A stretch of 64,000 bases of DNA from positions 140,495 to 204,494 of the forward strand of contig CAVYNH010000004.1 in the NCBI GenBank assembly GCA_963769885.1. Direction: 5' to 3'. Of the stretch, positions 3,389-39,493 are shown one piece after another (within the stretch, counting starts at the first letter, position 1; each line of letters starts with the position of its first letter). The translations under genes were made by a program, and so were the position numbers. The notes beneath the pieces are model-generated. The model was not told the origin of the DNA and did not search any database. It saw only the letters and a program-made list of their open reading frames with translations. The DNA comes from Methanobacteriota archaeon (GTDB lineage Archaea > Thermoplasmatota > E2 > DHVEG-1).

Positions 3389-3401
3389 AACGAGGTTCAC
3401 A

Positions 3402-5873: not shown

Positions 5874-6180
5874 ATTTTATTTTATCTTAAAGGTCTCATT
5901 GTCTGGGCATTCATTATAAATAAAAAAAAACTGATTCTATTGAGTAAAATCTTTATTTAGAAAAAGAAAAAAGAAGGATTTTAGAGAGTAATGCAGGCGG
6001 ATTAAGAACGTGGTTTCTAAGCCGTTTGTTAAGACTTTCAACAGGAAGGAAAAAGTCTTAACCCCGACAGGAGCACATATTTTCCATAAAAAAACAATAT
6101 TGCTAGAGATTAGCACGAAGGTTGGGTTAGGTTTATATATCAGGAAAATCATGCTACATTATAACACGATTTTGACTGTT

Positions 6181-6279: not shown

Positions 6280-8604
6280 CTAAGAGGGTGCTATCCGGAT
6301 AAAGATAAGGAAAGCGTAACCGGCTGCGTTTTTAGTGATGGTGGGGATACCATCGGCGCAGACGGTGAAGGTGACGGTGAGGGGGCCGAAGGCGATGAAG
6401 GGGATGAAGGTTGCGGAAGCAGTTTTACCGGCGTCGATAGAGCTGATGTTGCCACATCGGAAGGTGCCAGAAAAGTTGAGCCAGGCTCCTTGGATGGTAT
6501 AGGTATAGACGATGTTGTTGGTAGTGCGGTTGCCGGGGTTGCTGAGGGTGGCTCGGAGTTGCATGAGGCCGCCTCTGATCTTGGTGATCTCGAGTTTGCC
6601 GCCTGCGGGGATAACATTCGCGGTGGTGGTATAAGGGAGGTAGTTGTGTTTGGTTACTGTGACGATCATGGTGCCGGTGGTGGTGGGTGCGACGGTGAAG
6701 GATACGATGCCTGAAATGCTAGTGGTGCCGACTTGGTAGACTTCAGTATTAAGAGTATCGCCTTTCCAGAGGCAGACGGTGGCACCTTCGATGGGGTTAT
6801 TGTTGCTGTCGGCGACGGTGACGTTGTAGGTGGAGGAGCCAACGGTGATACAGGATGGGTAGGTAACACGAAGCGTTCTTGGTGTTGCCGTCCAGATGGG
6901 TGTGCTAGGGTCGCCGAGGAGGGTGAGTTCGGTGTAGATGTATTGGTCGAGGTTGTCGCTGGAGATGCCGTCGTTCTTGTGATTTGAGAGGGCGGCGCCG
7001 ACCGTGTTTTGGTTGTGGGTAAAGATGGATCGAAAGAAGAGGCGGTCGAATTTGAGGCTGAGGCCGTTTTGGCTGCCTATATAGTACCAGCCGTAGCGGC
7101 TGTTGCCAATGAAGGCGATGCCGCCGCCGTGGGCGTTCCGGACAAAATGTTCGCCAATGCAAATATTCGCATCATATGCGCAGGGGTCGCAGCCCATGCT
7201 GTAGTAGATGCCTTGGCGTTGGGCGTTGGCGAGGCCGTCCATGTCGCCGCTGTCGATATACCAGCCGTGGTTGACCGACCCGGTGCCCATGGTGTAGATG
7301 CTGGAGTGGTCGGCGTGGTTCATGAGGTTCTGGCCGGCGTTGAGGGATTTGATGACGTTGTCGCGATGGTTGCCGCTTTCGCTGTCGTATACATGGGTCG
7401 TGTTCCAGCTGTGGGGGATGTAGGCGTCTTTAATGTTTTGTTTGCAGATCTCGACGTGGGTGCTGTTGTCGAGGTCGAAGCCGTACATGGCGGCGTTGGT
7501 GGCGAAGTTGTCGGCGGGGTGTTGTTCGTAGGCGAGGGTTTTGTTGATAAAGTTGCCGATCTGGCCGTTGCCGTCGCCGGAGCCGGTGACGCTGGCGCGG
7601 CCGACGTTGACTTCGATGGTCCAGTCTTCGTCGAAGTCAGCGTAGTAGGTGTCGTTGGGGACGGGGTCGGGGTCGACGGCGGGGAAGCTGTGGTAGTTGC
7701 AGGGGATGGTGCTGGTGTCGCCGCCGAGGAGGATATAGGTGGTGCCCCAATTGTCGTACACGTCTTTGGCGAAGGCGTTGATTTTCTGGTCCTTGCTGCC
7801 ATTGTAGCCGCTTTGGTTGTAGATCCAATCCGTGGTCATGATAATGGTGGGGATGCCGCATTGGGTGCGCCAGTCGGCGAGCGGTTGGAAGGCGTTGACC
7901 CAGTCGGGTTTGGTGATGATGACGTACTCGTAATGTCCGGGTGGGAGGCCTGTGGTGCGTGGTTTGGGGTTGTGTTGGAGGGCGATGTCGGGGGGGTTGA
8001 TGACTAGGTGTTGAACCTTGGCGATGCGTTGTTGGGTCTCGGTTGATGTGAGGCCGGTGGGGAGGTAGTCTCCGTAAGTATGGGTTGGCGTGCCGGTGAG
8101 GGTAATGGTGAGGCTGGTGGTGAGGGTGAGTGTTTTGTCGGCAGGGATGTAATGGATGGGGTAGATGGTGATGAGGGCGATGGCTTGACCTGCAAGGTCG
8201 GTCTCTGCGGTTAGTACGGCGGTCTGGGTTGGATAGGGTGTAGTGGAGTGGTAGGCTGTTTCGTCTGGTGATGTGAAGGTGTTGGTATCATCGTTGGTGG
8301 TGCGTGGTGTCTGTGTGGGCCAAATATTATAGGTGCCGATGAGGGGTTGGGTTCGTTGGTTGAGGATTTGGATGGCGGTGGCTTGAAGGTTGGGCGGGAG
8401 GGCTATTTTGAGGGTGATGGCGGGAAGGCTGGGTTTGCCTGGTTCGGTGGTGGTGCTGCCGTTTGTTGTGGTGATTTGGTCGTAGCCGTTGTATGTACTG
8501 AAGTCAAAGTCGTCGGATGTGAAGGTGATGGTGATTGTCTTGGTGGGGGTTGTGGTGGTTGCGGGTACGGTGGTCGTGAAGACGAGGCTGCCGATAATTA
8601 TCAA
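6280..8604 (-). CDS. secreted C25 (gingipain)-like cysteine peptidase with Thr-rich N-terminal linker
   Basis: A signal/TM and TTTTPTKT linker precede motifs YILLGGDTSTIPC, a His in MNHADHSS and a Cys in YYSMGCDPCAYD, which are C25-like. Closest paralog in window is 16082..18034. Confidence 0.55.
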   Translation of the reverse strand: MIIIGSLVFTTTVPATTTTPTKTITITFTSDDFDFSTYNGYDQITTTNGSTTTEPGKPSLPAITLKIALPPNLQATAIQILNQRTQPLIGTYNIWPTQTPRTTNDDTNTFTSPDETAYHSTTPYPTQTAVLTAETDLAGQAIALITIYPIHYIPADKTLTLTTSLTITLTGTPTHTYGDYLPTGLTSTETQQRIAKVQHLVINPPDIALQHNPKPRTTGLPPGHYEYVIITKPDWVNAFQPLADWRTQCGIPTIIMTTDWIYNQSGYNGSKDQKINAFAKDVYDNWGTTYILLGGDTSTIPCNYHSFPAVDPDPVPNDTYYADFDEDWTIEVNVGRASVTGSGDGNGQIGNFINKTLAYEQHPADNFATNAAMYGFDLDNSTHVEICKQNIKDAYIPHSWNTTHVYDSESGNHRDNVIKSLNAGQNLMNHADHSSIYTMGTGSVNHGWYIDSGDMDGLANAQRQGIYYSMGCDPCAYDANICIGEHFVRNAHGGGIAFIGNSRYGWYYIGSQNGLSLKFDRLFFRSIFTHNQNTVGAALSNHKNDGISSDNLDQYIYTELTLLGDPSTPIWTATPRTLRVTYPSCITVGSSTYNVTVADSNNNPIEGATVCLWKGDTLNTEVYQVGTTSISGIVSFTVAPTTTGTMIVTVTKHNYLPYTTTANVIPAGGKLEITKIRGGLMQLRATLSNPGNRTTNNIVYTYTIQGAWLNFSGTFRCGNISSIDAGKTASATFIPFIAFGPLTVTFTVCADGIPTITKNAAGYAFLIFIRIAPS

Positions 8605-15976: not shown

Positions 15977-16065
15977 CCCCCCTTTCTTTTTTTCCTTTTC
16001 CTTGATGAGAGTTGATGAACGAGCAAGAAAAAGGGGGAAGTCCCCGGGTTTAGCGGCCGGGGGAC
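15977..16065. terminator. bidirectional terminator region: oligo-T tract immediately after the stop at 15974, plus GC hairpin gtccccgg/ccgggggac at 16040..16065, between convergent genes
   Basis: A T-rich run (ctttctttttttccttttcc) sits next to an 8-9 bp GC stem between convergent ORFs. Confidence 0.4.
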
Positions 16066-16081
16066 TGCGGGGGTGATCTCG

Positions 16082-18034
16082 TTATTGGGCGTAGCCGCCG
16101 ATCATGAGGCTGGGGTCGCCGAGGGCGAGCCATTCCTCGACGGTTTTGGTGTCTGCCTGGTCTGCCATGCCTGGGTAGACGTTCAGGTATCGGGTTATGG
16201 AACCGCTCCAGGCGTTGCCGAGGGTCTTAATCGTGCTGGCGTTGTAGGCTTGCAGGAAAGTGCGTTCGATGAAACCGCCGAGTACTTGGTAGCAGGCTGG
16301 TTCCCCGTTCACGTCTCCGATGCCGCCATAGCCGAGGCCGGTGTTGCCCATCACCGCGATGGCGCCGCCGCCTATTTTCGCCATCATCCATTCGCTCCAG
16401 CACCGCGGTGTAGGTGATCCATGGGTCCAGCTGTGGGTGTTATTCTTGTCCAGGGACCACAGGAGGGAGATGTTAATCATGCTGTTGTGGCAGCCGCCGA
16501 CGAGGCAAATCGGGAGTTTTTCGCGGTTGAACAGGGTCATCATATTGTAGATGTGGAGTCCGCCGGGGGTGTGTCCGCTTTTCCAGGTAAATTCGTCATG
16601 CCAGTGGGTGTTCCAGGCGGTGGGGCTGCCGTGGCCGTCGAAGTGGAGGAATCCGCAGCCTGCCGTGATTTCCCGCTCGATGTTCCTTGGGGTGGGCGTC
16701 GAGGTGTTGGTGATGTTACGGTTGGAGGCAAAAAGGTTGATGGCGGTGAAGGTGGGGAGGGATTCGTTGTGGCAGTAAAGGGTTGCGACTTCTCCTTCGT
16801 TGTAGTCGCCGGTGGTGGTGTCATTGAAGGAGTCGCCGCCGACGAGAACCTCTTTGTTGAACCAGGTGGGGTCCGCTTGGGTTGCCTCGTAGGTGATGAT
16901 CTTTTTAACCATAATTTTGAGTTCCGGTGCGTTGCGGCAGGCGAGTCGTCCGACGGCGACGTCCGGGTAGAGGTCGAGGATATCTTTGCCGGCGCCGTTC
17001 CATTTGGCGTAGATGTGGTCGCCATTGGTGTCCCAGCTGGAGAAGTTGCCGTTGCTGTCGTAGATGTCTGCGAAGTAGAGGTCGCTGACGAGGCCGGGGT
17101 CGTAGACGGTGCCGCCTTCGTTAATGTTGGCGTAACGGACGGGGCAGTACCAGGTTTTGACGCCGGCGTTGGCGTTGTCGCGGCCGCCCTTGCCGAAGAT
17201 GTAGCCTTTCATGCCGCCGATGAGCAGGACGTAGGAGGTGTTCCAGGCGTCCACGGCGTGTTTGATGAAGTACTTGATCTTCTCGGGTTTGTCGTAGCCC
17301 GTGTATTGTTTGTAGATATCCTCGAGGGTCATGATGGTGGTGTTGACGCCGTGGCCGATCTTCGCGGTGGCGAGGGGTTCGAGGATGTTAGTGAATTTCT
17401 TGGGGGTGATGATGACGAGGTCGTAGCCGGTGCCGAAGGTCTTCGGGGTGGTTGGGGTTTGGTAGGTGATGGTGATAGTGGCATCCTGGAAGTATTGGAG
17501 GGTGTTGGCAGCGGGGTTGACGCCGGTGGGGAAGGTGCGGATGACGAGGAAGGTGGTGTGTGCGCCGTTGGCGTTCAGTCCGCAGCCGGTGCTATAGTCG
17601 AACCAGGCTGCGGGGTAGTACTGGTTAGATGTGTAGGCTTCGGGGTCCGCGTAGACTGTGAGAGGAGTGATTTGGTCTTCAGGGACGGCTTGTGGTGAGG
17701 GTTTGAGTGGTGCGGTGAGGGTGAGGGTTTCGGTGGTGTGTGGTGTGAGGGTGACGCTGGCGATGGTGGTGCCGAAGGGGAGTTCGAGGGTGGTGGTGGT
17801 CATGGGGATGGCGGGTTTGCCGTCGGCGATGAGGGCGTTGTCGGCGCCGGCGACGGTGAGTTCGGTGTAAGTGTGTGAGTCAATTGTGGTTAAGGCTGTG
17901 GTGGGCGTGGAGAAATGGAGGTTGATTGATTCTGTGGTGGTGGTCTGCTGGCCTGTTGTTAGTATGGTGAGTCCTCCGATGAGGAGTAGGACTACCGCTA
18001 GACAGGAGAGAGTTTTGCTCTGTATTTTTATCAC
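16082..18034 (-). CDS. secreted C25 (gingipain)-like cysteine peptidase with Thr-rich N-terminal linker
   Basis: Motifs are a signal peptide, YVLLIGG, FDGHGSP (His) and LVGGCHNS (Cys). It is a paralog of 6280..8604. Confidence 0.55.
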   Translation of the reverse strand: MIKIQSKTLSCLAVVLLLIGGLTILTTGQQTTTTESINLHFSTPTTALTTIDSHTYTELTVAGADNALIADGKPAIPMTTTTLELPFGTTIASVTLTPHTTETLTLTAPLKPSPQAVPEDQITPLTVYADPEAYTSNQYYPAAWFDYSTGCGLNANGAHTTFLVIRTFPTGVNPAANTLQYFQDATITITYQTPTTPKTFGTGYDLVIITPKKFTNILEPLATAKIGHGVNTTIMTLEDIYKQYTGYDKPEKIKYFIKHAVDAWNTSYVLLIGGMKGYIFGKGGRDNANAGVKTWYCPVRYANINEGGTVYDPGLVSDLYFADIYDSNGNFSSWDTNGDHIYAKWNGAGKDILDLYPDVAVGRLACRNAPELKIMVKKIITYEATQADPTWFNKEVLVGGDSFNDTTTGDYNEGEVATLYCHNESLPTFTAINLFASNRNITNTSTPTPRNIEREITAGCGFLHFDGHGSPTAWNTHWHDEFTWKSGHTPGGLHIYNMMTLFNREKLPICLVGGCHNSMINISLLWSLDKNNTHSWTHGSPTPRCWSEWMMAKIGGGAIAVMGNTGLGYGGIGDVNGEPACYQVLGGFIERTFLQAYNASTIKTLGNAWSGSITRYLNVYPGMADQADTKTVEEWLALGDPSLMIGGYAQ

Positions 18035-18123
18035 CCCTTGTACTGAGATACAGGTAGTTGAAGGAGATATAAATATTTATGTGAGAGATAAAATCTAGGG
18101 AGGGGGGATGTTTTATATTTCTC

Positions 18124-18666
18124 GTGGCGGATGCTGGGGGGATGGTGAAGTCGTCGTTGCCGTCGCCGGAGTCGTTTGTGAGGCGTGCGAGGGCTTTGGG
18201 GGCGGCGGATGCGAAAATCGTCGCTCCGAAGGACGTGTTCACGGCGGAGTGGGTGCGGGTGAAGTGCCAGTTCGGCTGCGACGGGTATGGGGAGCATTTG
18301 ACGTGCCCGCCGTTTTCGCCGACGCCGGCGCAGACTCGGAGGATCCTGGATGAGTACGAGGTCGCGGTGTTAATCCATTACGACTCGGAGGATTGGGAGG
18401 ACATCACGGGGGTCGTGGTGACGCTGGAGCGGGAGGCGTTCCTGGCCGGGTATTATAAGGCGTTGGGGCTGGGCTCTGGGCCGTGTACGCTGTGCGAGAC
18501 CTGTGATATCAAGAGGAGGTGCCGGCATCCTGAGGAGGCGCGGCCGTCGATGGAGGCGTGCGGCATCGATGTTTTTAAGACGGCGCGGGCGGCGGGGTTT
18601 CCCATCGAGGTTGTTAAGGATTATTCATGCCCGCAGAACTACTACGGGCTGCTGCTCCTCCAGTAA
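18124..18666 (+). CDS. predicted metal-binding protein (DUF2284-like, C-x-x-G...C-P-P motif)
   Basis: Motifs KCQFGCDGYGEHLTCPPF and CTLCETCD are present. The actual start is possibly the Met at 18142. Confidence 0.45.
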   Translation: MADAGGMVKSSLPSPESFVRRARALGAADAKIVAPKDVFTAEWVRVKCQFGCDGYGEHLTCPPFSPTPAQTRRILDEYEVAVLIHYDSEDWEDITGVVVTLEREAFLAGYYKALGLGSGPCTLCETCDIKRRCRHPEEARPSMEACGIDVFKTARAAGFPIEVVKDYSCPQNYYGLLLLQ

Positions 18667-18729
18667 ACCGCGGGGGGCAATCTTTAAATCCTGTTCTGAA
18701 TTGATGGCTGGTGGAGGTCGAATAGAAAT

Positions 18730-19707
18730 ATGTGGCTTCAATTGAGATTGTACTTGCTCGTCGCCTTGTTATTCGCCATCCTGTATGGGATTATCTTCGC
18801 GATCGGATGGCTCTTGGGGTTGACGGGATATTCGTTTTTCATCTTCTCCGGTTTCGCCGCGTTCGTGATGGTCCTGATCCAGTTCTTGATCGGGCCGAAG
18901 ATCGTGCAGTGGACGATGCGGGTTAAGTACGTGACCCCGGAGCAGTACCCCAAGCTGTACGCGATGGTCGGGGACCTGGCGAAGCAGGCGGGGCTGCCGA
19001 ACACGCCGAAGGTCGGCATCTCGCAGCTGCGGATTCCCAACGCGTTCGCCTTCGGGCGGACGAAGCGGGGCGCGCGCGTCTGCGTCACCCAGGGGATCCT
19101 GGACCTGTTGACCGATGATGAGCTGAAGGCGGTGCTGGGCCATGAAATCTCACACGTGCGCCACCGGGACGTCGCCGTGATCACGATGCTGAGCGTCATC
19201 CCGATGATCTTCTACATGATCTACATCTCGTTTTTCTGGGGCGGGATGGGGAATCGGGATCGCAACGGCGGCGGGACCGTGCTCGTCGGATTAGTCGCAT
19301 TGGCGGTGTACTTCATCACGAACCTCTTAGTCATGTACGGTTCGCGGATCCGGGAGTACTACGCGGACCAGGGCAGCGCGGAGCTCGGCTGCCAGCCGCG
19401 GTACCTCGCCACCGCGTTATACAAGTTGACGACGTGGAGTGCGAAGGCGCCCAAGCAGCTGATCAAGCAGACGGACGGGATGAAGGCGTTCTTCATCAAC
19501 AACCCGGGCCGGGCGATGGAGGAAGTCCGCGACTTCCAGGAGATCGACGTCACCAAGGACGGCGTCATCGACCAGAACAACCTGATGATGCTGGCCGGCA
19601 AGAAGATCAACCTGCGGGCGGGTGCCCGGTTCCTGGAGATCTTCGGGACGCATCCGAACGTGGTGAAGCGCATCAAGCACCTCGCCAGCCTGCAGTACGC
19701 CTCCTAA
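18730..19707 (+). CDS. htpX: zinc metalloprotease HtpX (peptidase M48)
   Basis: The HExxH motif GHEISHVRHRD sits between TM helices, and a downstream glutamate is present. Confidence 0.75.
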   Translation: MWLQLRLYLLVALLFAILYGIIFAIGWLLGLTGYSFFIFSGFAAFVMVLIQFLIGPKIVQWTMRVKYVTPEQYPKLYAMVGDLAKQAGLPNTPKVGISQLRIPNAFAFGRTKRGARVCVTQGILDLLTDDELKAVLGHEISHVRHRDVAVITMLSVIPMIFYMIYISFFWGGMGNRDRNGGGTVLVGLVALAVYFITNLLVMYGSRIREYYADQGSAELGCQPRYLATALYKLTTWSAKAPKQLIKQTDGMKAFFINNPGRAMEEVRDFQEIDVTKDGVIDQNNLMMLAGKKINLRAGARFLEIFGTHPNVVKRIKHLASLQYAS

Positions 19708-19714
19708 AGGCTAC

Positions 19715-20010
19715 ATGCGGATCTGGGATGTCCCGCCTCGTGATTTGTGCCGTAGCCATCTCCTCGGTGATCACCGGGAGCTGCATGCGATCTGGTCCAT
19801 TCTCGTTCATCAGAACAAAGGGTACGCCAATCATCCAGAAACACTGCGCTGGAAGGGGAAATAACGCGCGTTGTACCTGCGACATGAGCAAATAGTAAAC
19901 GAGATGGTACAGCGGGGGTACCGCCATTTCAGCCCCATTGGACAAATCATTTGCTCCAGGGGAGAGCCAGCAGGACGTCTTTGTCGATTCGCCTGATGAG
20001 CAAGTTCGTT
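19715..20010 (+). pseudogene. disrupted pyrimidine-dimer DNA glycosylase (T4 endoV-like family) remnant
   Basis: The N-terminal segment MRIWDVPPRDLCRSHLLGDHRELHAIWSILVHQNKGYANHPETLRWKGK is typical of the family and then hits a stop. The C-terminal-like segment EMVQRGYRHFSPIG continues in another frame. Confidence 0.4.
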
Positions 20011-20078
20011 TGCTACGACAGAAAAAATGTGGATGCACTGTGTGACTTCAGAGAAAAAAAATAGAAAAGGGGATGGTT

Positions 20079-20327
20079 CTACTTTTGTCCGACGCCACCC
20101 CATTTTGAGATATATATGATTCCGAGAACAGATACAAGTGTTATAACCACTGCTACGATTATTGCATAAGCTGCACCGGTCCATGTTGTTGGTCCAGTCG
20201 CAAGCCAAAGTCCTGCAAGTGTCATTATCCCAACTATGATATCTTTCCAGATTAGAGCTATGATAAAACCAAATGCCGCTGCTATTGCTACTGCTATCGT
20301 GCTCTTGATTTCTTTTATGGTTACCAT
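20079..20327 (-). CDS. small membrane protein (2 TM)
   Basis: An 82 aa hydrophobic ORF. Low confidence. Confidence 0.3.
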   Translation of the reverse strand: MVTIKEIKSTIAVAIAAAFGFIIALIWKDIIVGIMTLAGLWLATGPTTWTGAAYAIIVAVVITLVSVLGIIYISKWGGVGQK

Positions 20328-20402
20328 CTCTCACCTCTCTCCTTTTTGCTACTAGAAACAATTTCTTTCTATATAATCGTTATGGATTTAGAAAAACACA
20401 CG

Positions 20403-21413
20403 TTATTCGAGGGGTATCAATGTTTTTCCATACAGGAGGCGGAACCAGCAGAGCGGCCAGACAATGATGGCGCCGAGAATGAGGAGCAAGCCGCCGGGTC
20501 CGATGGCGGAGAGCAGCATAACCGAAAGGACCAGGGGGACGAGCAGGAGGCTGAGCCCCTCGTGAACCCCGGTGATACGCAGGAAGGTGTTCCGTGAGGG
20601 TGACGGGCCACGCAGGAGGAGTGCCGTGGTCACCAGAAGGAGCATTGAAATAATGATGTAGCAGACGAGTGGGATTGGGAGCCCATCAATACTGCTTGCG
20701 ACCAGACCCAATGCGAACGGCAGGCCGAGAACCACGAGAAAGGCGACAGAGATGCCGGCAGCGTAGACGCGGAACACCCAGGGAATCGTGGTCTTCCCGT
20801 TTGTCGCGGTGACACCGAAGACGGTCGGTGAGGTGTAGACCTTGCTCTTAGCGTCCTCCTCGACGTCCTTGAGATTCGCGGTGATGCCGACACTGAAGAC
20901 CCACTGCAGGTAGAATGCGGTGGCGACGAGCCATACCACAAGGTTCACCGAGCCCTGAGTGTAAACTGCGCCTGCAAGTGTGAGGACGAACACCCCAAGG
21001 CCCAAGACGCACTCCAGAAACGGGAGGCGTTTGTTCAGTATGTTGTAAGTCACGGCGCACCCGATCGCGGCCATGACAAGCCCGAGGGAGAGCAAAGACT
21101 CCACGGACAAAGAGAGGATCAGCATACCGATGAAGGCGAATATAGTGATGATGACCGCATGACGTTTTGGGACCCTGCCCTCAAGCAGCGGGCGTGCAGC
21201 GACATATCGAGAGCGGGCGTCGACCGCCATATCCACGATGTCGTTCTGCACGAATGTGAACACATGATACAGGCAGCCCATGAGCAGCAGCAGCAAAAGG
21301 ACCGGCGGATGCGCCTCATGATTCGCCACCGCCCCGAACACCGGCGCAAGCCCCAGAAACAGCATACCGTAGGGACGGATCAACCGCAGGTACTGCCCGA
21401 GCCTGCCGACCAT
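20403..21413 (-). CDS. UbiA-family prenyltransferase
   Basis: About 8 TM helices, with an Asp-rich NDIVDMAVD motif and a second Asp-rich loop. Confidence 0.65.
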   Translation of the reverse strand: MVGRLGQYLRLIRPYGMLFLGLAPVFGAVANHEAHPPVLLLLLLMGCLYHVFTFVQNDIVDMAVDARSRYVAARPLLEGRVPKRHAVIITIFAFIGMLILSLSVESLLSLGLVMAAIGCAVTYNILNKRLPFLECVLGLGVFVLTLAGAVYTQGSVNLVVWLVATAFYLQWVFSVGITANLKDVEEDAKSKVYTSPTVFGVTATNGKTTIPWVFRVYAAGISVAFLVVLGLPFALGLVASSIDGLPIPLVCYIIISMLLLVTTALLLRGPSPSRNTFLRITGVHEGLSLLLVPLVLSVMLLSAIGPGGLLLILGAIIVWPLCWFRLLYGKTLIPLE

Positions 21414-21417
21414 CCCA

Positions 21418-21786
21418 CTACCTCAACGCAGTTTTCTCCACCCACTTCCCCTCGCCCTCCCACAGCCGCACTGAGGCCAGGGGTAGCTTGTCCTGCAGTC
21501 GCGCCCAGATCCACTCGATCAACGACTCCGCCGTCGGATTTGCGACCACGTCGTTTAACAGCTGATGGTCCAAGACTGAGATGACCTCATGGCGGACGAT
21601 GTCCTTGACCGCGGAGAAGTCCATGACCATTCCGTTCTTCCCCACCGGACCCTCGGCGACGACCTCCAGGCGGTAGGTATGCCCATGCGTCTGCCGGCAG
21701 GGCCCCTCATGGCCGGGGATGGAATGCCCGGCGTCAAACACGAACTCGCAGCCGATCCGCATCGTACTCATACCCGGCCACAACAC
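21418..21786 (-). CDS. queD: 6-pyruvoyl-tetrahydropterin synthase / QueD-like
   Basis: The CxxxHGH motif CRQTHGHTY is present. Length is 122 aa. Confidence 0.65.
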   Translation of the reverse strand: MLWPGMSTMRIGCEFVFDAGHSIPGHEGPCRQTHGHTYRLEVVAEGPVGKNGMVMDFSAVKDIVRHEVISVLDHQLLNDVVANPTAESLIEWIWARLQDKLPLASVRLWEGEGKWVEKTALR

Positions 21787-22049
21787 ACACCTGCGATATT
21801 AACAATTCGGACCCACAAAATTAGAGGAATCCAGGATAGGGCTGTACAACAAGCCTTTATAAGCATGAGCCCAACCCTATCCCTGATGATGGTCATCGGA
21901 CTGCTCACCAGCGAGGAAGAAGCCAACGAACTGCAATACATCGCCACGGTCTGCACCCTCGAAGAGCGCATCCACCGCATCGTCCACATCGCTAGAATCA
22001 AAAACATCAGCACAAACTACTAAAATAAAACCCTCGTTTTCTCCCAACG

Positions 22050-22913
22050 ATGACGATCCTCCTGGTCTCCTCCAGCGAAGACCCCGCCAGCACCAACATC
22101 AAAGACGGCCTCCTACAGCAACATGCTTGGCAGCAGACCGCCACCTTCTCCAACGCCCCCGCCTACACCTCCCCTACCCTCTACGACATCGTCCTCCTCA
22201 CCATCCCCGACAGAAAGATCCGCCATGAACACCTCCAAGACGAAGTCACCGCAAGCCTCGGCATCACCCCAACCCTCGCCATCTTCCTCAGCCGCCACCG
22301 CAGCAAGACCGGCCCACCCACCCTCACCGTCCACCCCATCGGCAACTACGCCGCCGCCGAGTTCGGCGGCCGCCCCCAGACCCTCGTCCCCGCCGCCCCC
22401 CACATCCAGACCCAACTCCTCCGACTCATCAACACCCGCGTCGCCCAGACACAACTCCCGTACAAGGTCTGCTTCGAAGTCACCCACCACGGCCCCTACC
22501 TCACCATCCCCACCCTCTTCGTCGAAGTCGGCAGCACCGAGACCCAATGGCAAGAAAAACCACCCGCCGACCTCATCGCCAGCGCCCTCCTCGACCTTCT
22601 CCCTACCATCCCTATACTTAAACCCGATGTCCCGGTCCTCGTCGGCATCGGCGGCGGCCACTACGCCCCCCGCTTCACTGACATCGCCCTCCAACGACAG
22701 GCCAGCTTCGGCCACATGCTTCCCACCTACCACATCCAAGACGCAATCGATGAGCACATGCTCGAGCTCGCCTTCGCCGAGACCCCAAGCGTCACGGGCG
22801 CCTACCTGCACCGCAAGGAACTCAAGAAATCACAGGCCACCGCGCTGACGAAATGGTGCGACGCGCATGGCATCCCGGTCGTCTCGAGCAACAACCTGCC
22901 CCTGCTTCAGTAA
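22050..22913 (+). CDS. dtdA: D-aminoacyl-tRNA deacylase, archaeal type
   Basis: The N-terminus MTILLVSSSEDPASTNI..., SRHRSKTGPPTLTVHPIGN and a length of about 287 aa fit archaeal DtdA. Confidence 0.55.
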   Translation: MTILLVSSSEDPASTNIKDGLLQQHAWQQTATFSNAPAYTSPTLYDIVLLTIPDRKIRHEHLQDEVTASLGITPTLAIFLSRHRSKTGPPTLTVHPIGNYAAAEFGGRPQTLVPAAPHIQTQLLRLINTRVAQTQLPYKVCFEVTHHGPYLTIPTLFVEVGSTETQWQEKPPADLIASALLDLLPTIPILKPDVPVLVGIGGGHYAPRFTDIALQRQASFGHMLPTYHIQDAIDEHMLELAFAETPSVTGAYLHRKELKKSQATALTKWCDAHGIPVVSSNNLPLLQ

Positions 22914-23829
22914 CCCCACCCCCGCCAGCACATGCGCCAGCCGCAACGGCTCTGGATGTTTCACCCGCGACGTCTTCTTCACGATTTCCACACACGACTC
23001 AAGCGACATCCGATGCCCCGGCGAGACGTACAACGGCCGCGTCGCCGACCCCGAACACACCGCGACACCACGACGCTCCCCATCCACAAACACATCCGTC
23101 CCCCGGACCTCCCCGCAGAGACGACTCTTCGCCACCCCGACCGTCGGCGTATCACAGACGACGCCGGCATGGCTCGCGAACCCACAGCGCGCCGGATGCA
23201 GGATCCCCTGACCATCCAGGAGCACCACAGACGGCGGTGAAGACGCCATCTTCAGCAGCCGCTCCACGAACGGCACCTCACGATACGAGAAATACGTCGG
23301 GATGAACGGAAACCGCGTCGACAACGACACCGTCCGCTCCTCCACCACGGCCCCCGTCTTATAATCCACCGCCACATACGCCCCACACGCCTTCGCAAAC
23401 TCACTCCTTGGATACGCCACGTCGATCCCCGCGACAACCTCCAGCGGCGGGAAATCATCCTCGACCCGCACCCGCTCACCGAGTTTCTGCTGCTCACGCC
23501 GCAGCCGACGCAAGGGAAACTCCGTCGAAAACTCATTGAAGAACACCCGATGAAAATCAACAATCATTCCATCCTGGACCTGCACATTCTCACGCGCAAG
23601 CCGACGCACCTTCTCCTCAAGCCCCAGACCGAACCCCCCGAGCCGACCATCGGAATGCACAACCTTGAAACACGGCATCCCCTCCGGATCCGGGTTCTGG
23701 TTCATCATCCGCCCCACCGCCCGAGACGCCACAATGTCCCCCAACGCCGCGGCCACCGCCCCATACGACGTCACATGACCAGCCGGCACCTGACGCACCA
23801 AATCATACGTATACGCAATCAAATCCATA
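22830..23829 (-). CDS. nfi: fusion protein: alkyltransferase-like (MGMT-fold, PCFK variant of PCHR) N-domain + endonuclease V (Nfi) C-domain
   Basis: The MGMT-like block is YGAVAAALG...MPCFKVVHSDGRLGG. The EndoV motifs are AGIDVAY, LLDGQGILHPARCGFASHAGV and PTVGVAKS. The start is placed at the Met of MDLIAYTY, since the track ORF extends spuriously upstream. Confidence 0.6.
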
Positions 23830-23909
23830 AACAACACAAGGATACCAGGAGAGGCGCTAAAAACCTTTCCCACCAAGTTTAAACCACCACCACCCAATCC
23901 CCCCACCCA

Positions 23910-24686
23910 ATGGGATTCCTCAAATTCCTCGGCACCGCCGGCGCCCGCTTCGTCGTCATGCGCCAGCTCCGCGCCAGCGGCGGCCTCTGGCTCAACCTCG
24001 ACGACACCACCCTCCTCATCGACCCCGGCCCCGGCTGCCTCCTCCGCTGCCTCCACAGCCACCCACCCCTCGACCCACGCACCCTCGACGGCATCCTCCT
24101 CACCCACCGCCACCTCGACCACTCAAACGACATCAACATCATGATCGAAGCCATGACCAACGGCGGCTACCACAAAAAAGGCACCGTCTACGCCCCCCAG
24201 GATGCCCTCACCGACGACCCCGTCATCCTCAGACACGCCCAACACCAAGTCAACACCCTCCAAACCCTCCACCCCACCCACACCTACACCCTCAACACCC
24301 TCACCCTCACCACCTCACCACCCCTCCACCACAGCGTCGAAACCTACGGCCTCACCATCCACGGAAAAACCCAAAGCATCGCCCTCATCACCGACACCGC
24401 CTACTACCCCGACCTCACCACCCAATTCCCCGCCGACATCCTCATCATCAACGTCGTCCTCCAAGACAAAAAAGACGGCATCCAACACCTCAGCCTCCCC
24501 GACGCCGAAACCATCATCGCCGGCAACCACCCCCACCTCGCCGTCCTCACCCACTTCGGTATGACCCTCGTCAAAGCCCAGCCCCACACCGTCGCCCAAG
24601 CCATGGCCGAACGCCTCGGCATCCCCGTCATCGCCGCCACCGACGACCTCACCCTCCCCCTCCCCTACACCCACCCAACACCCTGA
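23910..24686 (+). CDS. MBL-fold metallo-hydrolase
   Basis: The HxHxDH motif LLTHRHLDHSNDI is present. Confidence 0.6.
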   Translation: MGFLKFLGTAGARFVVMRQLRASGGLWLNLDDTTLLIDPGPGCLLRCLHSHPPLDPRTLDGILLTHRHLDHSNDINIMIEAMTNGGYHKKGTVYAPQDALTDDPVILRHAQHQVNTLQTLHPTHTYTLNTLTLTTSPPLHHSVETYGLTIHGKTQSIALITDTAYYPDLTTQFPADILIINVVLQDKKDGIQHLSLPDAETIIAGNHPHLAVLTHFGMTLVKAQPHTVAQAMAERLGIPVIAATDDLTLPLPYTHPTP

Positions 24687-24721
24687 AAAGACCCACCACA
24701 TTCCCTTCACCCAAAGACCCT

Positions 24722-25708
24722 ATGGACACCAGCCTCACCCACCTCCCCCGCTACAAAAACATCCTCTCTGGCAATGGCATCGCCGCCTACCTCACCACCA
24801 AACACCAGACTGTCGCTTATACCGACACCATGACCATTGACGAACTCTGGAAACAACACGACATCCCAGACCACTCCCCACCTCCCACTGATTCCTCACA
24901 CAGCCTCCTCGGCCTCAAATGCACCATCGCACAGCGCATCCTCACCTCCTGCACCCTCTGCGAACGCCGCTGCCACACCAACCGACGACAACACCAGGGC
25001 CCCTGTCACACCCAACACTCCCACATCACCACCGAATTCCTGCACACCGGCGAAGAACCACCACTCATCCCCTCCCACACCATCTTCTTCTCCGGCTGCC
25101 CCCTCCACTGCGCCTTCTGCCAAAACCACGACATCAGCCAGACCACCACCGGCACCACCATCCCACCACAAGAGCTTGCCCGCATCATCGCCGAACGCCA
25201 TATCCACGGCGCCCGCAACGTCAACTGGGTCGGCGGCGACCCCACCCCTAACCTCCCTTATATCCTCACCGTCCTCACCCATCTCATCACCAACACCCCC
25301 CAGATCTGGAACTCAAACATGTACTACAGCACCGAGACGATGCGCCTCCTCGACGGCATCATCGACCTCTACCTCACCGACTACAAGTTCGGCAACGACG
25401 CCTGCGCCATACGCCTCGCCGACGCCACCAACTATACCGCTGTCGTCCAGCGTAACCATCTTCATGCCGCAGAGACTGCGGATGTCCTCATCCGCCACCT
25501 CCTTCTTCCAAATCATTTCGAGTGCTGTACCATCCCTGCTCTCGATTGGATTGCCTCCAACATCCCCTCTGCTGTCGTCAACATCATGGCGCAATATCAT
25601 CCTGACTACCACGCCAATGAGTACCCCGATATCGCCAACACCATCGCTATCCAGGATTACCGTACCGCACTGAACTACGCTGAAACCCTCGGCCTGCATC
25701 TCATTTGA
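24722..25708 (+). CDS. radical SAM protein, PflA/AmmeMemoRadiSam-like
   Basis: An upstream Cys cluster CTLCERRCHTN...GPCHTQ precedes FFSGCPLHCAFCQNHDIS (CxxxCxxC). Confidence 0.5.
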   Translation: MDTSLTHLPRYKNILSGNGIAAYLTTKHQTVAYTDTMTIDELWKQHDIPDHSPPPTDSSHSLLGLKCTIAQRILTSCTLCERRCHTNRRQHQGPCHTQHSHITTEFLHTGEEPPLIPSHTIFFSGCPLHCAFCQNHDISQTTTGTTIPPQELARIIAERHIHGARNVNWVGGDPTPNLPYILTVLTHLITNTPQIWNSNMYYSTETMRLLDGIIDLYLTDYKFGNDACAIRLADATNYTAVVQRNHLHAAETADVLIRHLLLPNHFECCTIPALDWIASNIPSAVVNIMAQYHPDYHANEYPDIANTIAIQDYRTALNYAETLGLHLI

Positions 25709-25744
25709 AAAACAACCGAGAAAAAACAGAGGAGAGGAGCGGGG

Positions 25745-26518
25745 TTATCGACGATGGTTCCAGGCCGGGTCGTCGAACATCTCTCGACGGTACCTTCTGG
25801 CGTACGCGGATTCCTCCGATGTGAGATAGCCGGGGTTGAAGGTGACGTCGAATTCTTCCTCGAAGCCCTTTCGCATGGCCAGGGCCGTCTCGTCGAAGGA
25901 GACGTCACGGCCGAGGACAGCTTTCATCGAGGTGACCCTTTGCCGGGCATCGGTGATCAGTTTGTCCTTCAGCTTCTCATCGGGGACTTTGAGCAGCGAG
26001 AACATAGTGTCGACGTCGACATCGAGGAGGATGGTCCCGTGCTGGAGGACGACGCCCTGTTTACGCGTCTGGGCGTTCCCTGAGATTTTCTTGCCCCCTG
26101 CGAGGATATCGTTGATTGGGGCGAAGCTGCTGTCGATATTGAGCTGTCTGAAACCGAGGATAAGGGCGTTGCAGATTCGTTCATAGCTTTGGATGATGTT
26201 CTGTGGCATCGCAGGATTGTTCTCCTCGATGACGATGCTGTATGTTAGTTCCGCGTCGTGGTAGACGGCGCCCCCGCCGGTGATGCGTCGGACGACGTCG
26301 ACATGGTGCTGGTGGCAGGCCTGGAGGTCGACTTCCTCTTCGAGGCTTTGGAAGTAGCCTATGGAGATGGCGGGCGGCTGCCAGCGGTAGAAGCGGACGG
26401 TGGGGGGGACGAGGTGGCGGCGGTGTGCCTCAAGGATGGCACGGTCAATGGCCATGTTGGCAGATGCGGTGTTCGCACCTGTTTGAAGGAGTCGCCAGGG
26501 TTCGGTCATGGGAGGCAC
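25745..26518 (-). CDS. lplA: lipoate-protein ligase A, catalytic subunit
   Basis: Motifs RWQPPAISIGYFQ and VVRRITGGGAVYHD are present. At 257 aa it lacks a C-terminal domain. Confidence 0.65.
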   Translation of the reverse strand: MPPMTEPWRLLQTGANTASANMAIDRAILEAHRRHLVPPTVRFYRWQPPAISIGYFQSLEEEVDLQACHQHHVDVVRRITGGGAVYHDAELTYSIVIEENNPAMPQNIIQSYERICNALILGFRQLNIDSSFAPINDILAGGKKISGNAQTRKQGVVLQHGTILLDVDVDTMFSLLKVPDEKLKDKLITDARQRVTSMKAVLGRDVSFDETALAMRKGFEEEFDVTFNPGYLTSEESAYARRYRREMFDDPAWNHRR

Positions 26519-26802
26519 TTCAAGATGGCTTGGGTGAGGCCTTCGGGGGTGAGGCCGATGAGTTGGAGGTGGTGGGTGTCGATGAGGGAGGTTATTTTCT
26601 GGTGGAGGTCGTGCTGGGTGATAGGGGTGCCGGGGAGGCCGGTTTCGAGGATGTCGATGGCTTCTTCGGGGTAGGCGAAGAAGTCGCCGGTGATCTGGAT
26701 GGTGGTGATGGTGTTGGTGGCGGGGTCGGTGGTGAGGGTGAGTTTGATGAGTTTGCCGTGGGGGTCTTTGTAGGTGATCTTGGTTGGGGTGGGTGTGGTC
26801 AT
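26506..26802 (-). CDS. lplB: lipoate-protein ligase accessory/C-terminal-domain protein
   Basis: A 98 aa ORF immediately upstream of and overlapping lplA. The size and position match split archaeal LplB. Confidence 0.45.
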   Translation of the reverse strand: MTTPTPTKITYKDPHGKLIKLTLTTDPATNTITTIQITGDFFAYPEEAIDILETGLPGTPITQHDLHQKITSLIDTHHLQLIGLTPEGLTQAILKCLP

Positions 26803-27668
26803 GGGGTGGCCTTGCGGGCGTGGGTGTAGGTTTGGTGGGCGTGGTAGGAGCTGCGGACGAGGGGGCCGGCTTCGATGGTGTGGATGCCGAGGGTGTGGGC
26901 GTAGGTTTTGAGGGCGTGGAATTCGGTGGGGGTGTAGTAGTGGTGGATGGGTTCGTGGTGTGTGGTGGGTTGGAGGTATTGGCCGATGGTGAGGATGTCG
27001 ATGTTGGCGGTGTTGAGGTCGTGGAGGGTGTGGTGGATTTGTGCTGTAGTTTCGCCGAGGCCGATCATGAGGCCGGATTTGGTGGTGATGGTGGGGGCGA
27101 TTGTTTTGGTGGTTTTGAGGAGGGTGAGGCTGGTGGTGTAGTTGCCTTGGGGGCGGATGGTGGGGAAGAGGGGTTGGACGGTTTCGATGTTGTGGTTGAG
27201 GATGTCGGGGTTGGCGTCAAGGATGGTGGTGAGGTGGGTGATGTTGCCTTGGAGGTCGGGGATGAGGGCTTCGATGGTGGTGAGTGGGTTGCGTTCACGG
27301 ATTGCGGTGATGGTGGTGGCGAAGTGCTGGGCGCCGCCGTCCGGGAGGTTGTCGCGGGTGACGCTGGTGATGACGGCGTGGGTGAGGCTGAGGGTTTTGA
27401 CTGCGGTGGCGACGTTAGTAGGTTCGGTGGGGTCTAGGGGGGTGGGGGTGCCGTGGTGGACGTGGCAGTAGCGGCAGTGTCTGGTGCAGGTGTCGCCGAG
27501 GATGAGGAAGACGGCGGTGCCAGCGGCGTAGCATTCGGCGAGGTTGGGGCATTTGGCTTCGTGGCAGATGGTGTGGAGGTTGGCGGATTTAAGGAGGGTA
27601 GTGATGGTCTGGTAGGTGGGGCCGCCGGGGATGGGGGTTTTGAGCCAGTCGGGGTGTCGTCTTGGCAT
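26799..27668 (-). CDS. lipA: lipoyl synthase
   Basis: The auxiliary cluster CHEAKCPNLAEC and the radical SAM motif CTRHCRYC are both present. Confidence 0.75.
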   Translation of the reverse strand: MPRRHPDWLKTPIPGGPTYQTITTLLKSANLHTICHEAKCPNLAECYAAGTAVFLILGDTCTRHCRYCHVHHGTPTPLDPTEPTNVATAVKTLSLTHAVITSVTRDNLPDGGAQHFATTITAIRERNPLTTIEALIPDLQGNITHLTTILDANPDILNHNIETVQPLFPTIRPQGNYTTSLTLLKTTKTIAPTITTKSGLMIGLGETTAQIHHTLHDLNTANIDILTIGQYLQPTTHHEPIHHYYTPTEFHALKTYAHTLGIHTIEAGPLVRSSYHAHQTYTHARKATP

Positions 27669-27719
27669 AGGTGTGGGATGTTTAGGGGTGGGGTGGTTTT
27701 TGAGGTTTATGGTTTGTGG

Positions 27720-28934
27720 TTAGACGCCGATGGTGACTCTGAGGAGGTCGCGGAGTCCTGGGCTGGCGCCGAGGATGAGGATGCCGATTTTGAGGAGGTT
27801 GATGAGGCGGGGGTAGCGGTCGGTCTCGTGTTTGTAGGCGATGTCGAAGAGGTAGATGATGAGGAGGATGAGGAGGATTTTGATGAGAGGGTAGAGGGGG
27901 GGCCAGATCGTGAGGAGGGCGTTGGAGGCGGGGTGTTTTTCGAGGTAGGGGGGGAGGCCGAGGTGGAGGGGGTCGGAGATGCTGAGGTAGCTGCTGACGC
28001 CGTCGAGGGTGTGGCCGGCGAGCATGGCGAGGTTGAGGGGGTTGGCGTAGGCTTTGAGGGGGGTGTTGCGGTAGTGGCGGCCGATGGCCCAGGTTGTTGT
28101 GGTGACGAGGGTGACGATGAGAAGGTCGGCGGCGAGGACGGCGAGGTAGGTGCCTTGGGTGGGGCTCCAGGGGGTGAGGATGTAGTGGGCGATGAGGGCG
28201 GTGGAGGGGAGCAGGACGAGGAGGCCGCCGGAGAAGACAATGAGGTTGAGGCTTGGAATCCGATTTTTATATCCGGTCCAGGCGAGGGGGAGGAAGGCGA
28301 GGAGGGAGAGGGCGGTGAAGACGAGGGGGTGGAGGGGGGCGACGCCGCCGGTGTTCCCAGTGAGCCAGAGGAGGGTGTAGATGAGGTCGCCGAGGAGGAA
28401 GACGCCGAGCAGAAGGAGGGTGATGGCGCGGGGGGAGTGGTTCTTTGAGAGACGTCGTTCGGCGTAGAGGCCGAGGAAGAGGAAGACGAAGACGTAGAGG
28501 GCGGTCTGGACATAGAGGAGGGGGGAGATGAAGACGTAGACTGCGGGCGGGGTGAAGAAGGCAGTGTCTTCCAGGACTCTGGTAACCGGGCCGAAGAGGA
28601 TGTAAGGCAGCAGGGCGAGGCAGAATCTCCAGTCGATTTGAATCTCGAGGCGTTTGAGGAGCTTATAAATGCCCAGGATGGCGAGGATGAGGATGATGCC
28701 GTAGGTGATCTCGGAGACGAGGGTGTAGCCTTCGTAGGCGGCCACGCCATGATAGACGGCAGGGTGGCTTTGGGCGTCCGCCATGACCGGGCCCCAGTAG
28801 TACTGCCAGATCCAGTGGTCGTAGAACACCGAGGGGAACAGGAGGCAGCCGGCGACGACGATAAGGACGACAAGGAGGGTGAGAAGGAGGCTGAGGCTGA
28901 GGAGGTGGCGGCGGAGGAGCGCGGGGGTCCTCAT
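27720..28934 (-). CDS. polytopic integral membrane protein (about 10 TM), unknown function
   Basis: A hydrophobic 404 aa ORF. Confidence 0.45.
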   Translation of the reverse strand: MRTPALLRRHLLSLSLLLTLLVVLIVVAGCLLFPSVFYDHWIWQYYWGPVMADAQSHPAVYHGVAAYEGYTLVSEITYGIILILAILGIYKLLKRLEIQIDWRFCLALLPYILFGPVTRVLEDTAFFTPPAVYVFISPLLYVQTALYVFVFLFLGLYAERRLSKNHSPRAITLLLLGVFLLGDLIYTLLWLTGNTGGVAPLHPLVFTALSLLAFLPLAWTGYKNRIPSLNLIVFSGGLLVLLPSTALIAHYILTPWSPTQGTYLAVLAADLLIVTLVTTTTWAIGRHYRNTPLKAYANPLNLAMLAGHTLDGVSSYLSISDPLHLGLPPYLEKHPASNALLTIWPPLYPLIKILLILLIIYLFDIAYKHETDRYPRLINLLKIGILILGASPGLRDLLRVTIGV

Positions 28935-29073
28935 GAGGCGGGCAAAGCCCCAGGCGGTTTATAAAGGCTGGCACGTGGCATCGTCGGCAGAATCCAGGAG
29001 GAGGTAGGGGTCTATAGGGAGGGGGGGATAAAAAAGTAATATAACGAACCTCCGGTTTACCTACTAGAGGCTC

Positions 29074-38233: not shown

Positions 38234-38509
38234 GTGACGAAGCCAATCCTGTTTTCACTTGAACACTGCCCGAAATGCGACCAGACCAAACACCTCCTCG
38301 CCACCCGCACCGACATCGACATCATCACCTTCCCCCATGACCTCTCCGCCTGGACCAGCCAGGACCGCCAGTTCGCTGAAACCCACGACGTCCTCGAAGA
38401 CCTCAAAATCACCGCCCCGATTCTCTGGAAAGACGGCGAAAAAACCATCGGCTACCTCAGAATCAAAAAATGGCTCCAAGACACCGCCACCCAGACAGAA
38501 ACTATTTAG
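38234..38509 (+). CDS. glutaredoxin/NrdH-like small redox protein (CPKC)
   Basis: A CxxC motif sits in a thioredoxin-fold-sized 91 aa ORF. Confidence 0.5.
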   Translation: MTKPILFSLEHCPKCDQTKHLLATRTDIDIITFPHDLSAWTSQDRQFAETHDVLEDLKITAPILWKDGEKTIGYLRIKKWLQDTATQTETI

Positions 38510-38597
38510 CCACCCCTCTCTTTTCAGAAAAATACCCTGATGACTGAGCCTCGATGAGATTCGAAAACGCAAACTCCAGGACCTCAGCCGTCGCTAC

Positions 38598-38942
38598 ATG
38601 AAAGGAGAACCCCAAATGGCCACCGCCCCCAACGCCCCGATCCACATCACAGACGAGGAATTCGACGCGGCCATCAAGAAATACCCGAACCTCGTCATCG
38701 ACTGCTGGGCCCCCTGGTGCGGCCCCTGCCGCATGCTCGGCCCCGTCATCGACGACCTCGCCAAAGAACTCCAAGGAAAAATCACCTTCGCCAAACTCAA
38801 CGTCGACGAAAACCCGCAGACCAGCATGAAACACCAGATCATGAGCATCCCCACCCTCCTCCACTTCAAAAACGGCCAGCTCGTCAACCGCCTCGTCGGC
38901 GCCCTCTCAAAGGAAACGCTTAAACAGCAGCTCGGCGTATAA
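38598..38942 (+). CDS. trxA: thioredoxin
   Basis: The WCGPC active site is present. Length is 114 aa. Confidence 0.8.
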   Translation: MKGEPQMATAPNAPIHITDEEFDAAIKKYPNLVIDCWAPWCGPCRMLGPVIDDLAKELQGKITFAKLNVDENPQTSMKHQIMSIPTLLHFKNGQLVNRLVGALSKETLKQQLGV

Positions 38943-38949
38943 ACCCCCT

Positions 38950-39483: not shown

Positions 39484-39493
39484 GGGAGATACT

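Follow-up and report, generated by a model that had tools for sequence, protein, structure and literature searches.

The gene studied here joins an alkyltransferase-like domain to endonuclease V (EndoV) in one reading frame. It raises the question of whether a protein that has PCFK in place of the PCHR motif of O6-alkylguanine-DNA alkyltransferases (AGTs) may still repair alkylated bases itself, or whether it has become a damage sensor only, as the first-pass annotation of this DNA had predicted as one possibility. Throughout, the window means the whole 64-kb stretch of DNA that was analysed.

The fused gene, its start and its neighbours

The gene and its immediate surroundings are arranged as follows.

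22830..23828, minus strand: AGT-EndoV coding sequence, 332 amino acids plus stop (ORF and translation, Pfam)
23826..23828, minus strand: ATG start, conserved in three orthologous loci
22832..22830, minus strand: TGA stop (ORF listing and translation)
23858..23868, minus strand: AAAGGTTTTTA, a BRE/TATA-like element, invariant in the window and in the loci L085 and L087
22050-22913, convergent: dtdA, archaeal D-aminoacyl-tRNA deacylase (PF04414, E=1e-61)
23910-24686, divergent: gene of the metallo-beta-lactamase (MBL) fold (Pfam)

The 332-residue product, made up of an AGT-like domain, a linker, an EndoV domain and a C-terminal tail, was called identically by independent gene callers on other assemblies. 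The range first given for it, 22830-23829, described a real gene, but its upper end lay one base too far, the true end being 23828, and a translation of that range falls out of frame. Every peptide quoted in the first-pass annotation was found in the translation, namely MPCFKVVHSDGRLGG at residues 51-65, AGIDVAY at 133-139 and DGQGILHPARCGFASHAGV at 205-223. With both Pfam domains in a single 332-residue ORF, the proposal held that a domain of the AGT C-terminal type is joined in frame to a complete EndoV. The dtdA gene overlaps the last 84 nucleotides of the AGT-EndoV gene, at 22830-22913, and elsewhere in the 64-kb window we found no second AGT or EndoV gene.

The N-terminus of the protein, M[DN]L, falls in the same alignment column in all aligned homologues and is common to hundreds of them. 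Upstream of the ATG, AAAGGTTTTTA spans 30-40 nucleotides from the start and is invariant in the three loci while the surrounding intergenic DNA diverges; by its match to the archaeal TATA consensus it is a putative promoter, and since its TTTTTA lies 30-35 nucleotides from the ATG, a very short leader is implied. A longer mechanical ORF, from 24122 to 22830, was rejected, its upstream extension entering the divergent MBL gene and showing no homology.

Comparison with the 85%-identical orthologue at L085 allowed selection on the two halves to be read separately. For residues 1-95, the AGT-like part, dN/dS was 0.065/0.817, or about 0.08, and for the EndoV domain it was 0.108/0.628, or about 0.17, so that the AGT-like domain is the more constrained half and is under stronger purifying selection than the nuclease.

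Strand bias around the gene

The window shows an extreme compositional pattern. Measured in 1-kb windows, its GC skew varies between -0.58 and +0.61 and runs counter to AT skew (r = -0.79), whereas related loci of other Thermoplasmatota have the usual positive correlation of GC and AT skew and much smaller skews. In most genes of the window the sense strand is rich in A and C, and GC skew at third positions falls as low as -0.94; a few genes on the opposite strand inside these blocks (AGT-EndoV, DUF2284, a B12-radical-SAM gene and an HhH-GPD glycosylase), all genuine by Pfam, have the reversed sign, at about +0.5. Because intergenic DNA follows the skew of the surrounding block, the pattern points to a strand-specific mutational bias acting over multi-gene blocks and not to codon selection. 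The skew pattern and the gene order (rSAM, MBL, antisense AGT-EndoV, dtdA) are both preserved in orthologous loci at dS above 0.6.

G-to-A and T-to-C are the changes that arise from the O6-alkylG and O4-alkylT lesions repaired by AGT. Since the AGT-EndoV gene stands antisense within a block in which sense strands are poor in G and T, the repair capacity of the lineage might be linked to its strand bias, although this is speculative.

The AGT-like domain keeps the acceptor cysteine and lacks the histidine

Residues 8-82 matched PF01035 (DNA_binding_1) with E=1.4e-22 and a score of 79.7 bits (Pfam cut-off 27), and the NCBIfam model TIGR00589 'ogt' scored 53.7 against a cut-off of 46.4. The AGT N-terminal domain is absent, the protein beginning only 7 residues ahead of the PF01035 match. 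An alignment by phmmer paired residues 8-81 with residues 100-173 of human AGT without a gap, so that residue n of the window protein corresponds to human residue n+92. Chance does not account for matches of this strength.

23583..23807, minus strand: AGT C-terminal-type domain with helix-turn-helix and active site, residues 8-82 (PF01035)
23664..23675, minus strand: P52-C53-F54-K55 (CCG TGT TTC AAG), at the position of the canonical PCHR, aligned by phmmer to human P144/C145/H146/R147
Y22: human AGT Y114
R36: human AGT R128, the arginine finger
N45: human AGT N137, the hinge
P48: human AGT P140
P52: human AGT P144
C53: human AGT C145
F54: human AGT H146
K55: human AGT R147
F66: human AGT Y158
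G67: human AGT S159
E80: human AGT E172

The first-pass annotation had noted that the acceptor cysteine is kept while other residues stand in place of the His and Arg of PCHR, and the gapless alignment with C53, F54 and K55 agrees. Judged by this alignment, the protein has every residue required to bind DNA, flip the base and accept the alkyl group except the histidine, and the change of Arg to Lys is conservative. The best sequence match of the N-domain in the PDB was 2kif, the non-catalytic alkyltransferase-like protein (ATL) of V. parahaemolyticus, which has the motif PWFR.

A complete EndoV domain, the C-terminal tail and the predicted structure

The C-terminal part of the gene contains the following features, the catalytic residues of EndoV having been assigned by alignment to the T. 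maritima and E. coli enzymes.

22932..23486, minus strand: EndoV domain, residues 115-299 (PF04493)
23421-23423, minus strand: D136, T. maritima EndoV D43
23277-23279, minus strand: E184, T. maritima EndoV E89
23214-23216, minus strand: D205, T. maritima EndoV D110
23127-23129, minus strand: K234, T. maritima EndoV K139
22932-22934, minus strand: H299, T. maritima EndoV H214
23298..23309, minus strand: wedge motif P174-F175-I176-P177, by alignment to T. maritima FPYIP
22833..22919, minus strand: C-terminal tail, residues 304-332, antisense into the 3' end of dtdA

The match to PF04493 (Endonuclease_5) was strong (E=2e-53, 181.4 bits against a cut-off of 23.4; Pfam), and all five catalytic residues are invariant or nearly so among homologues. 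The wedge reads PFIP, with Phe for the Tyr of the canonical PYIP; homologues of the clade have either Phe or Tyr there, and the pattern used for scanning was FP[YF][IV][PS]TY.

An AF2 model built on an 88-sequence alignment reached a pLDDT of 92.5 and a pTM of 0.89, with pLDDT values of 91-98 in the AGT-like domain, and the two domains are predicted to be packed as a single rigid body. The linker residues F92, F97, F100, P105 and L106 are nearly invariant. In a Foldseek comparison the model superposed on E. coli EndoV (4xpu) with a TM score (target) of 0.87 and an rmsd of 1.8, and the Foldseek search against the PDB returned only EndoV chains (target TM 0.77-0.87), with no solved structure spanning both domains.

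The 29-residue tail is missing from most homologues, and its residues 319-332 have AF2 pLDDT below 50. Compared with L085 its dS is only 0.09 and its dN/dS about 1.3, which indicates that its sequence is dictated by dtdA on the opposite strand; the tail is probably a read-through extension without function.

PC-aromatic motifs are the norm of the family

The fusion has at least 533 homologues, and the best 120, at 53-100% identity, all have the same fusion. Their motifs are PCFK (69), PCYK (49) and PCFR (2), so that PC[FY][KR] accounts for 120 of 120. Among representatives of clusters at 50% identity, 313 members of the fusion family were found at E<=1e-30, and three types of motif could be told apart: canonical PCHR in 33 of 151, PC-aromatic-[KR] in about 33, and a varied Cys-less, ATL-type set with P[WAVLIT]HR and others. 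In a scan of species-representative genomes, the matches listed came mostly from Thermoplasmatota MAGs, including Methanomassiliicoccales, and also from bins labelled Planctomycetota, Fraserbacteria, Acetothermia and Thermotogae; the best of these listed matches was 57% identical to the window protein.

The first-pass annotation had referred to AGT-EndoV fusions in Thermoplasmata such as Ferroplasma, and orthologues of that genus with the same architecture were indeed recovered. The motifs of the named orthologues are these.

Acidiplasma aeolicum: PCYK
Ferroplasma sp. Type II, 'O6-methylguanine-DNA methyltransferase/endonuclease V': PCYK
Ferroplasma sp.: PCYK
Picrophilus oshimae, 'Bifunctional methyltransferase/endonuclease': PCYK
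Thermoplasma acidophilum, 'Bifunctional methyltransferase/endonuclease': PCYR

For the Acidiplasma protein 120 homologues were listed, with PC[YF][KR] in 115 of them and PCHR in none. The order AGT then EndoV was present in all of the 120+120 homologues listed. PCFK had seemed to set the window gene apart from the Ferroplasma type, and this does not stand, the Ferroplasma, Acidiplasma, Picrophilus and Thermoplasma orthologues all being PCY[KR]; across these homologues PCFK is the family norm and no peculiarity of the window gene. With all named orthologues PCY[KR], loss of the histidine appears as a hallmark of a family whose type member reportedly repairs O6-alkylguanine.

The motif of that type member, the AGTendoV of F. 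acidarmanus, can be approached through its congeners. All 29 Ferroplasma-genus orthologues (at least 63% identical to the Ferroplasma Type II protein) combine PCY[KR] with Asp at the position of Glu172, and Asp is found there in 58 of 73 members of the PC-aromatic class as against 3 of 46 in the PCHR class. A 2023 review describes the F. acidarmanus protein as having an 'aspartate' where other AGTs have a glutamate (PMC10779285), which matches the Asp of the Ferroplasma-genus orthologues. The congeners' sequences thus strongly indicate that F. acidarmanus AGTendoV carries PCYK and is without the histidine.

A neighbour-joining tree calculated with the motif columns removed split the motif class into several pure clades, of which one holds 20 sequences together with the window protein, one holds 25 with Ferroplasma and Picrophilus, and others are smaller; deep nodes of this tree are unreliable. 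Motif type requires 28 state changes on it.

The cysteine is invariant in the PC-aromatic class, and most Cys-less fusions keep the histidine

The PC-aromatic class and the Cys-less fusions differ in more than the motif. In the former Y22, R36 and C53 are each present in 73 of 73 members and N45 in 71, whereas in the 55 Cys-less fusions, to which C53 does not apply, Y22 is kept in 26, R36 in 37 and N45 in only 6. About half of these 55 have the active-site loop deleted, and the cysteine has given way to Trp, Ala, Val, Leu, Ile or Thr; His and Arg, on the other hand, are kept in 42 and 49 of the 55, respectively. Judged by such motifs, true sensor-type fusions have evolved many times, unlike the window protein. 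That the cysteine never varies, next to a residue that switches between Phe and Tyr, is most readily accounted for if the cysteine is the functional residue.

Replacement of the histidine co-varies with changes that include those at residue 55 (Arg to Lys), residue 80 (Glu to Asp) and residues 75/76 (Arg-Arg). This suggests a remodelled network, and since the motif classes are partly phylogenetic the co-variation is a lead only.

The gene probably encodes a bifunctional AGT/EndoV repair enzyme

We consider it likely, with a probability of about 0.65, that the gene product is a bifunctional AGT/EndoV repair enzyme of the AGTendoV type, in which each domain would contribute its own activity. What is known of AGTendoV is drawn here second-hand from PMC10779285, PMC4357722 and PMC7690668: the F. 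acidarmanus enzyme is reported there to repair O6-alkylguanine (PMC10779285) and to cleave DNA with uracil, hypoxanthine or xanthine (PMC4357722).

In the window protein the N-domain, of about 85 residues, corresponds to that half of an O6-alkylguanine-DNA alkyltransferase which is C-terminal and catalytic. Working as human AGT does, it would bind the minor groove through its helix-turn-helix, flip out the alkylated base with Arg36 (human R128) and Tyr22 (Y114), hold the active-site loop with Asn45 (N137) and accept the alkyl group irreversibly on Cys53 (C145), in a stoichiometric, suicidal reaction. The EndoV domain would act in a Mg-dependent manner, using the metal site D136/E184/D205/H299, K234 and the PFIP wedge, and would nick the strand at the second phosphodiester on the 3' side of a deaminated base, for example hypoxanthine. 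Because the position of the histidine holds Phe or Tyr interchangeably, the PC[FY][KR] subclass would have to activate its cysteine without the canonical Glu-His-water relay. The class tends to Lys for Arg147 and to Asp for Glu172; the window protein retains its glutamate, Glu80.

Several points speak against a bifunctional enzyme. The histidine is absent and its place is taken by a Phe, which, unlike Tyr, is incapable of hydrogen bonding; the best PDB match is an ATL with Phe at that very position; and identity to the Ferroplasma proteins is only about 38%. According to the review, His146 is part of the relay that deprotonates the cysteine (PMC10779285), and the window protein is without it.

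The most serious alternative, which we regard as unlikely, is an ATL-like sensor fused to a nuclease. Its N-domain, having lost the His relay, would bind O6-alkylguanine and flip it out but leave the alkyl group on the base, and would then present the damaged site to the fused EndoV or to excision repair, opening an endonucleolytic route for alkyl lesions. The replacement of His146 by a non-hydrogen-bonding Phe, the free exchange of Phe and Tyr in the clade, the PWFR motif of the top PDB sequence match and the abundance of Cys-less fusions are all consistent with such a sensor, and archaeal ATL-EndoV fusions have been reported (Tubbs 2009, as cited in PMC10779285). However, Cys53 is invariant in 120 of 120 closest homologues listed and in 73 of 73 class members, genuine Cys-less fusions do the opposite in that they keep HR, lose the cysteine and decay in the equivalents of Tyr114 and Asn137 and in the active-site loop, and active alkyl transfer is reported for the Ferroplasma type of protein, which shares this class of motif. 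The damage-sensor-only function first predicted for the PCFK variant is accordingly the less likely one, the cysteine and base-flipping residues being invariant in the class and decayed in the Cys-less ATL-type fusions.

In a further, rather doubtful version, Cys-dependent transfer without His would define a distinct, His-independent alkyltransferase subclass, the Phe branch of which, with the window gene in it, either transfers or is a Cys-retaining sensor that feeds its own EndoV. If this version were true, the relay of the subclass would have been remodelled by His to Tyr/Phe, Arg to Lys and usually Glu to Asp, and transfer without a hydrogen-bonding residue at the His position would contradict the textbook mechanism of activation.

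It is improbable that the N-domain serves only for general DNA binding or scanning and in this way increases the affinity or processivity of EndoV, with a cysteine of structural importance and no lesion-specific role. The predicted rigid two-domain unit (pTM 0.89) and the near invariance of the five linker residues would fit this explanation, and the review relays the speculation that extra DNA contacts of the EndoV domain may speed translocation of ATL-EndoV (PMC10779285); such a module, however, would have no use for an arginine finger, an equivalent of Tyr114, an Asn hinge, a Pro-Cys pair and an active-site loop that are all invariant, and the dN/dS of the domain lies below that of the nuclease. 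Finally, a plain EndoV with its true start downstream of the AGT-like region, the case named at the outset as refuting the fusion, can practically be dismissed: although an in-frame Met, residue 88, precedes the EndoV domain, no evidence in favour was found, and the AGT-like region has a dN/dS of 0.08 with a dS of 0.82, the ATG at 23828 and the promoter-like element 30 nucleotides upstream are conserved, and the N-terminus is shared by hundreds of homologues, gene callers giving 332 amino acids.

What the family implies

In annotation, the proper name of the gene would be bifunctional methylated-DNA-protein-cysteine methyltransferase / endonuclease V; most sources label relatives of the window protein only 'endonuclease V' or 'deoxyribonuclease V', and several annotate them as bifunctional. 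If the whole Thermoplasmatota AGT-EndoV family, apparently including its sole characterised member, is without the histidine, activation of the AGT cysteine is not strictly His-dependent, and the natural alternation of Tyr and Phe provides a ready-made test of His dependence. The review treats PCHR as universal ('All AGT genes encode ... PCHR'; PMC10779285), and family-wide absence of the histidine was not found in the open full-text literature that we searched. The family-wide absence, set against the universal PCHR of the review, is the mildly new point; it raises no question of long standing and would not greatly surprise a specialist.

Comparison with known systems

The AGTendoV of Ferroplasma acidarmanus was reportedly described by Kanugula et al. 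in 2005 (PNAS 102:3617). Like its Picrophilus and Thermoplasma relatives, it is a polypeptide of about 300 amino acids with an AGT C-domain followed by EndoV and without the AGT N-domain, and these fusions share with the window protein the PC-aromatic-[KR] class, as far as can be deduced for the F. acidarmanus motif, and the phylum-level host group. These features place the window protein in the AGTendoV-type family of fusions, which has been known since 2005. It differs from the Ferroplasma-type fusions in being only about 35-39% identical to them, in having Phe and not Tyr at the His position and Glu and not Asp at the Glu172 position, and in its 29-residue disordered tail overlapping dtdA.

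With canonical AGTs (human AGT/MGMT, E. coli Ogt, Ada-C and archaeal Ogt) the window protein shares the PF01035/TIGR00589 fold family and the equivalents of Tyr114, Arg128, Asn137, Pro140, Pro144, Cys145 and Glu172. It departs from them by His146 to Phe, Arg147 to Lys, Tyr158 to Phe and Ser159 to Gly, by its fusion to a nuclease and by having no AGT N-terminal domain, which the review describes as dispensable and as missing in endonuclease fusions (PMC10779285).

ATLs (S. pombe Atl1, E. coli Atl/YbaZ and vpAtl, 2kif) likewise consist of an AGT C-domain and have no AGT N-domain. In vpAtl, too, the His position is occupied by Phe (PWFR), and the Cys-less EndoV fusions and the window protein are parts of one broad fusion family. 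ATLs are, however, defined by loss of the acceptor cysteine to Trp, Ala or others, whereas the window clade keeps it invariantly; on this definition the window protein, with its Cys53, is not an ATL.

Against the EndoV enzymes of E. coli (Nfi, 4xpu) and T. maritima (2w35/3hd0), identity is 34% and 30%, respectively, with TM scores of 0.83-0.87. All of their metal-binding and Lys residues are kept in the window protein, which differs from both in the Phe that replaces the wedge Tyr of PYIP and in the AGT-like domain packed at its N-terminal side.

Gene order around the AGT-EndoV fusion

The order rSAM, MBL (the divergent metallo-beta-lactamase-fold gene), antisense AGT-EndoV, dtdA (D-aminoacyl-tRNA deacylase) is kept across three diverged genomes. 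In the window and in its orthologous loci L085 and L087, the AGT-EndoV and dtdA genes converge, with their 3' ends overlapping tail to tail:

window, 22830-22913, 84 nt
L085, 2989-3072, 84 nt
L087, 8916-8945, 30 nt

Because the overlap leaves no space for a terminator between the two genes, transcription of dtdA probably reads through in antisense across the AGT-EndoV gene. The palindromic GTTTAAAC (window 23877-23884) is invariant across the three orthologous loci and lies ~26-33 nt upstream of the MBL-fold gene ATG (23910). It is likely the TATA box of that gene, in which case the 81-nt spacer would carry two back-to-back promoters.

Strand composition of the window

Strand asymmetry is extreme and block-wise at 16000-29000 and 38500-57000, and across the window GC skew is anticorrelated with AT skew (r=-0.79), each multi-gene block having an A+C-rich strand opposite a G+T-rich one. 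Examples of the two block types, by GC skew of the + strand, are:

21600-25700, negative-skew block, -0.3 to -0.57
26000-29000, positive-skew block, +0.42 to +0.60

The sense strand is A+C-rich in the majority of window genes, with GC3 skew reaching -0.94, and the sign of the skew is reversed in the minority of genes lying on the opposite strand within a block. Since the block composition is also seen in intergenic DNA, the pattern suggests a strand-specific mutational bias rather than codon selection, and its unit is perhaps the transcription unit. Among the other Thermoplasmatota loci compared, the asymmetry was found only in locus L015. Strongly A+C-rich sense strands also mark two large Peptidase_C25 (gingipain-family) proteins with a propeptide domain:

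6280-8604, minus strand
16082-18034, minus strand

Four genes, all real by Pfam, have instead a G+T-rich sense strand, with GC3 skew of about +0.5:

18124-18666, plus strand, DUF2284
22830-23828, minus strand, AGT-EndoV
47336-48679, plus strand, B12-binding radical SAM
53006-53824, minus strand, HhH-GPD base-excision glycosylase (its match to a TrmB-like HTH is weak and falls below threshold)

That two of these four are DNA repair genes may be coincidence or a sign of low expression. Composition is, in addition, strongly mosaic at 1-6000, 41900-43650 and 57200-59300, where genes of GC 0.32-0.45 and GC3 down to 0.18 stand amid genes of GC ~0.6 and GC3 up to 0.90; these regions are possibly foreign islands or the product of a mis-joined MAG contig.

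AGT/ATL-EndoV fusions in MAGs with non-archaeal labels

Among the matches listed, fusions at 34-43% identity also occur in MAGs with non-archaeal labels (L033, L042, L045, L049, L053, L059, L066, L067, L070-L073, L077-L079), their bins being assigned to Planctomycetota/Pirellulales, Fraserbacteria, Acetothermia, Thermotogae and Hippea. With hosts known by MAG label and mis-binning possible, the architecture would not be limited to archaea. These non-archaeal-labelled fusions carry PCHR, PCYK or Cys-less motifs.
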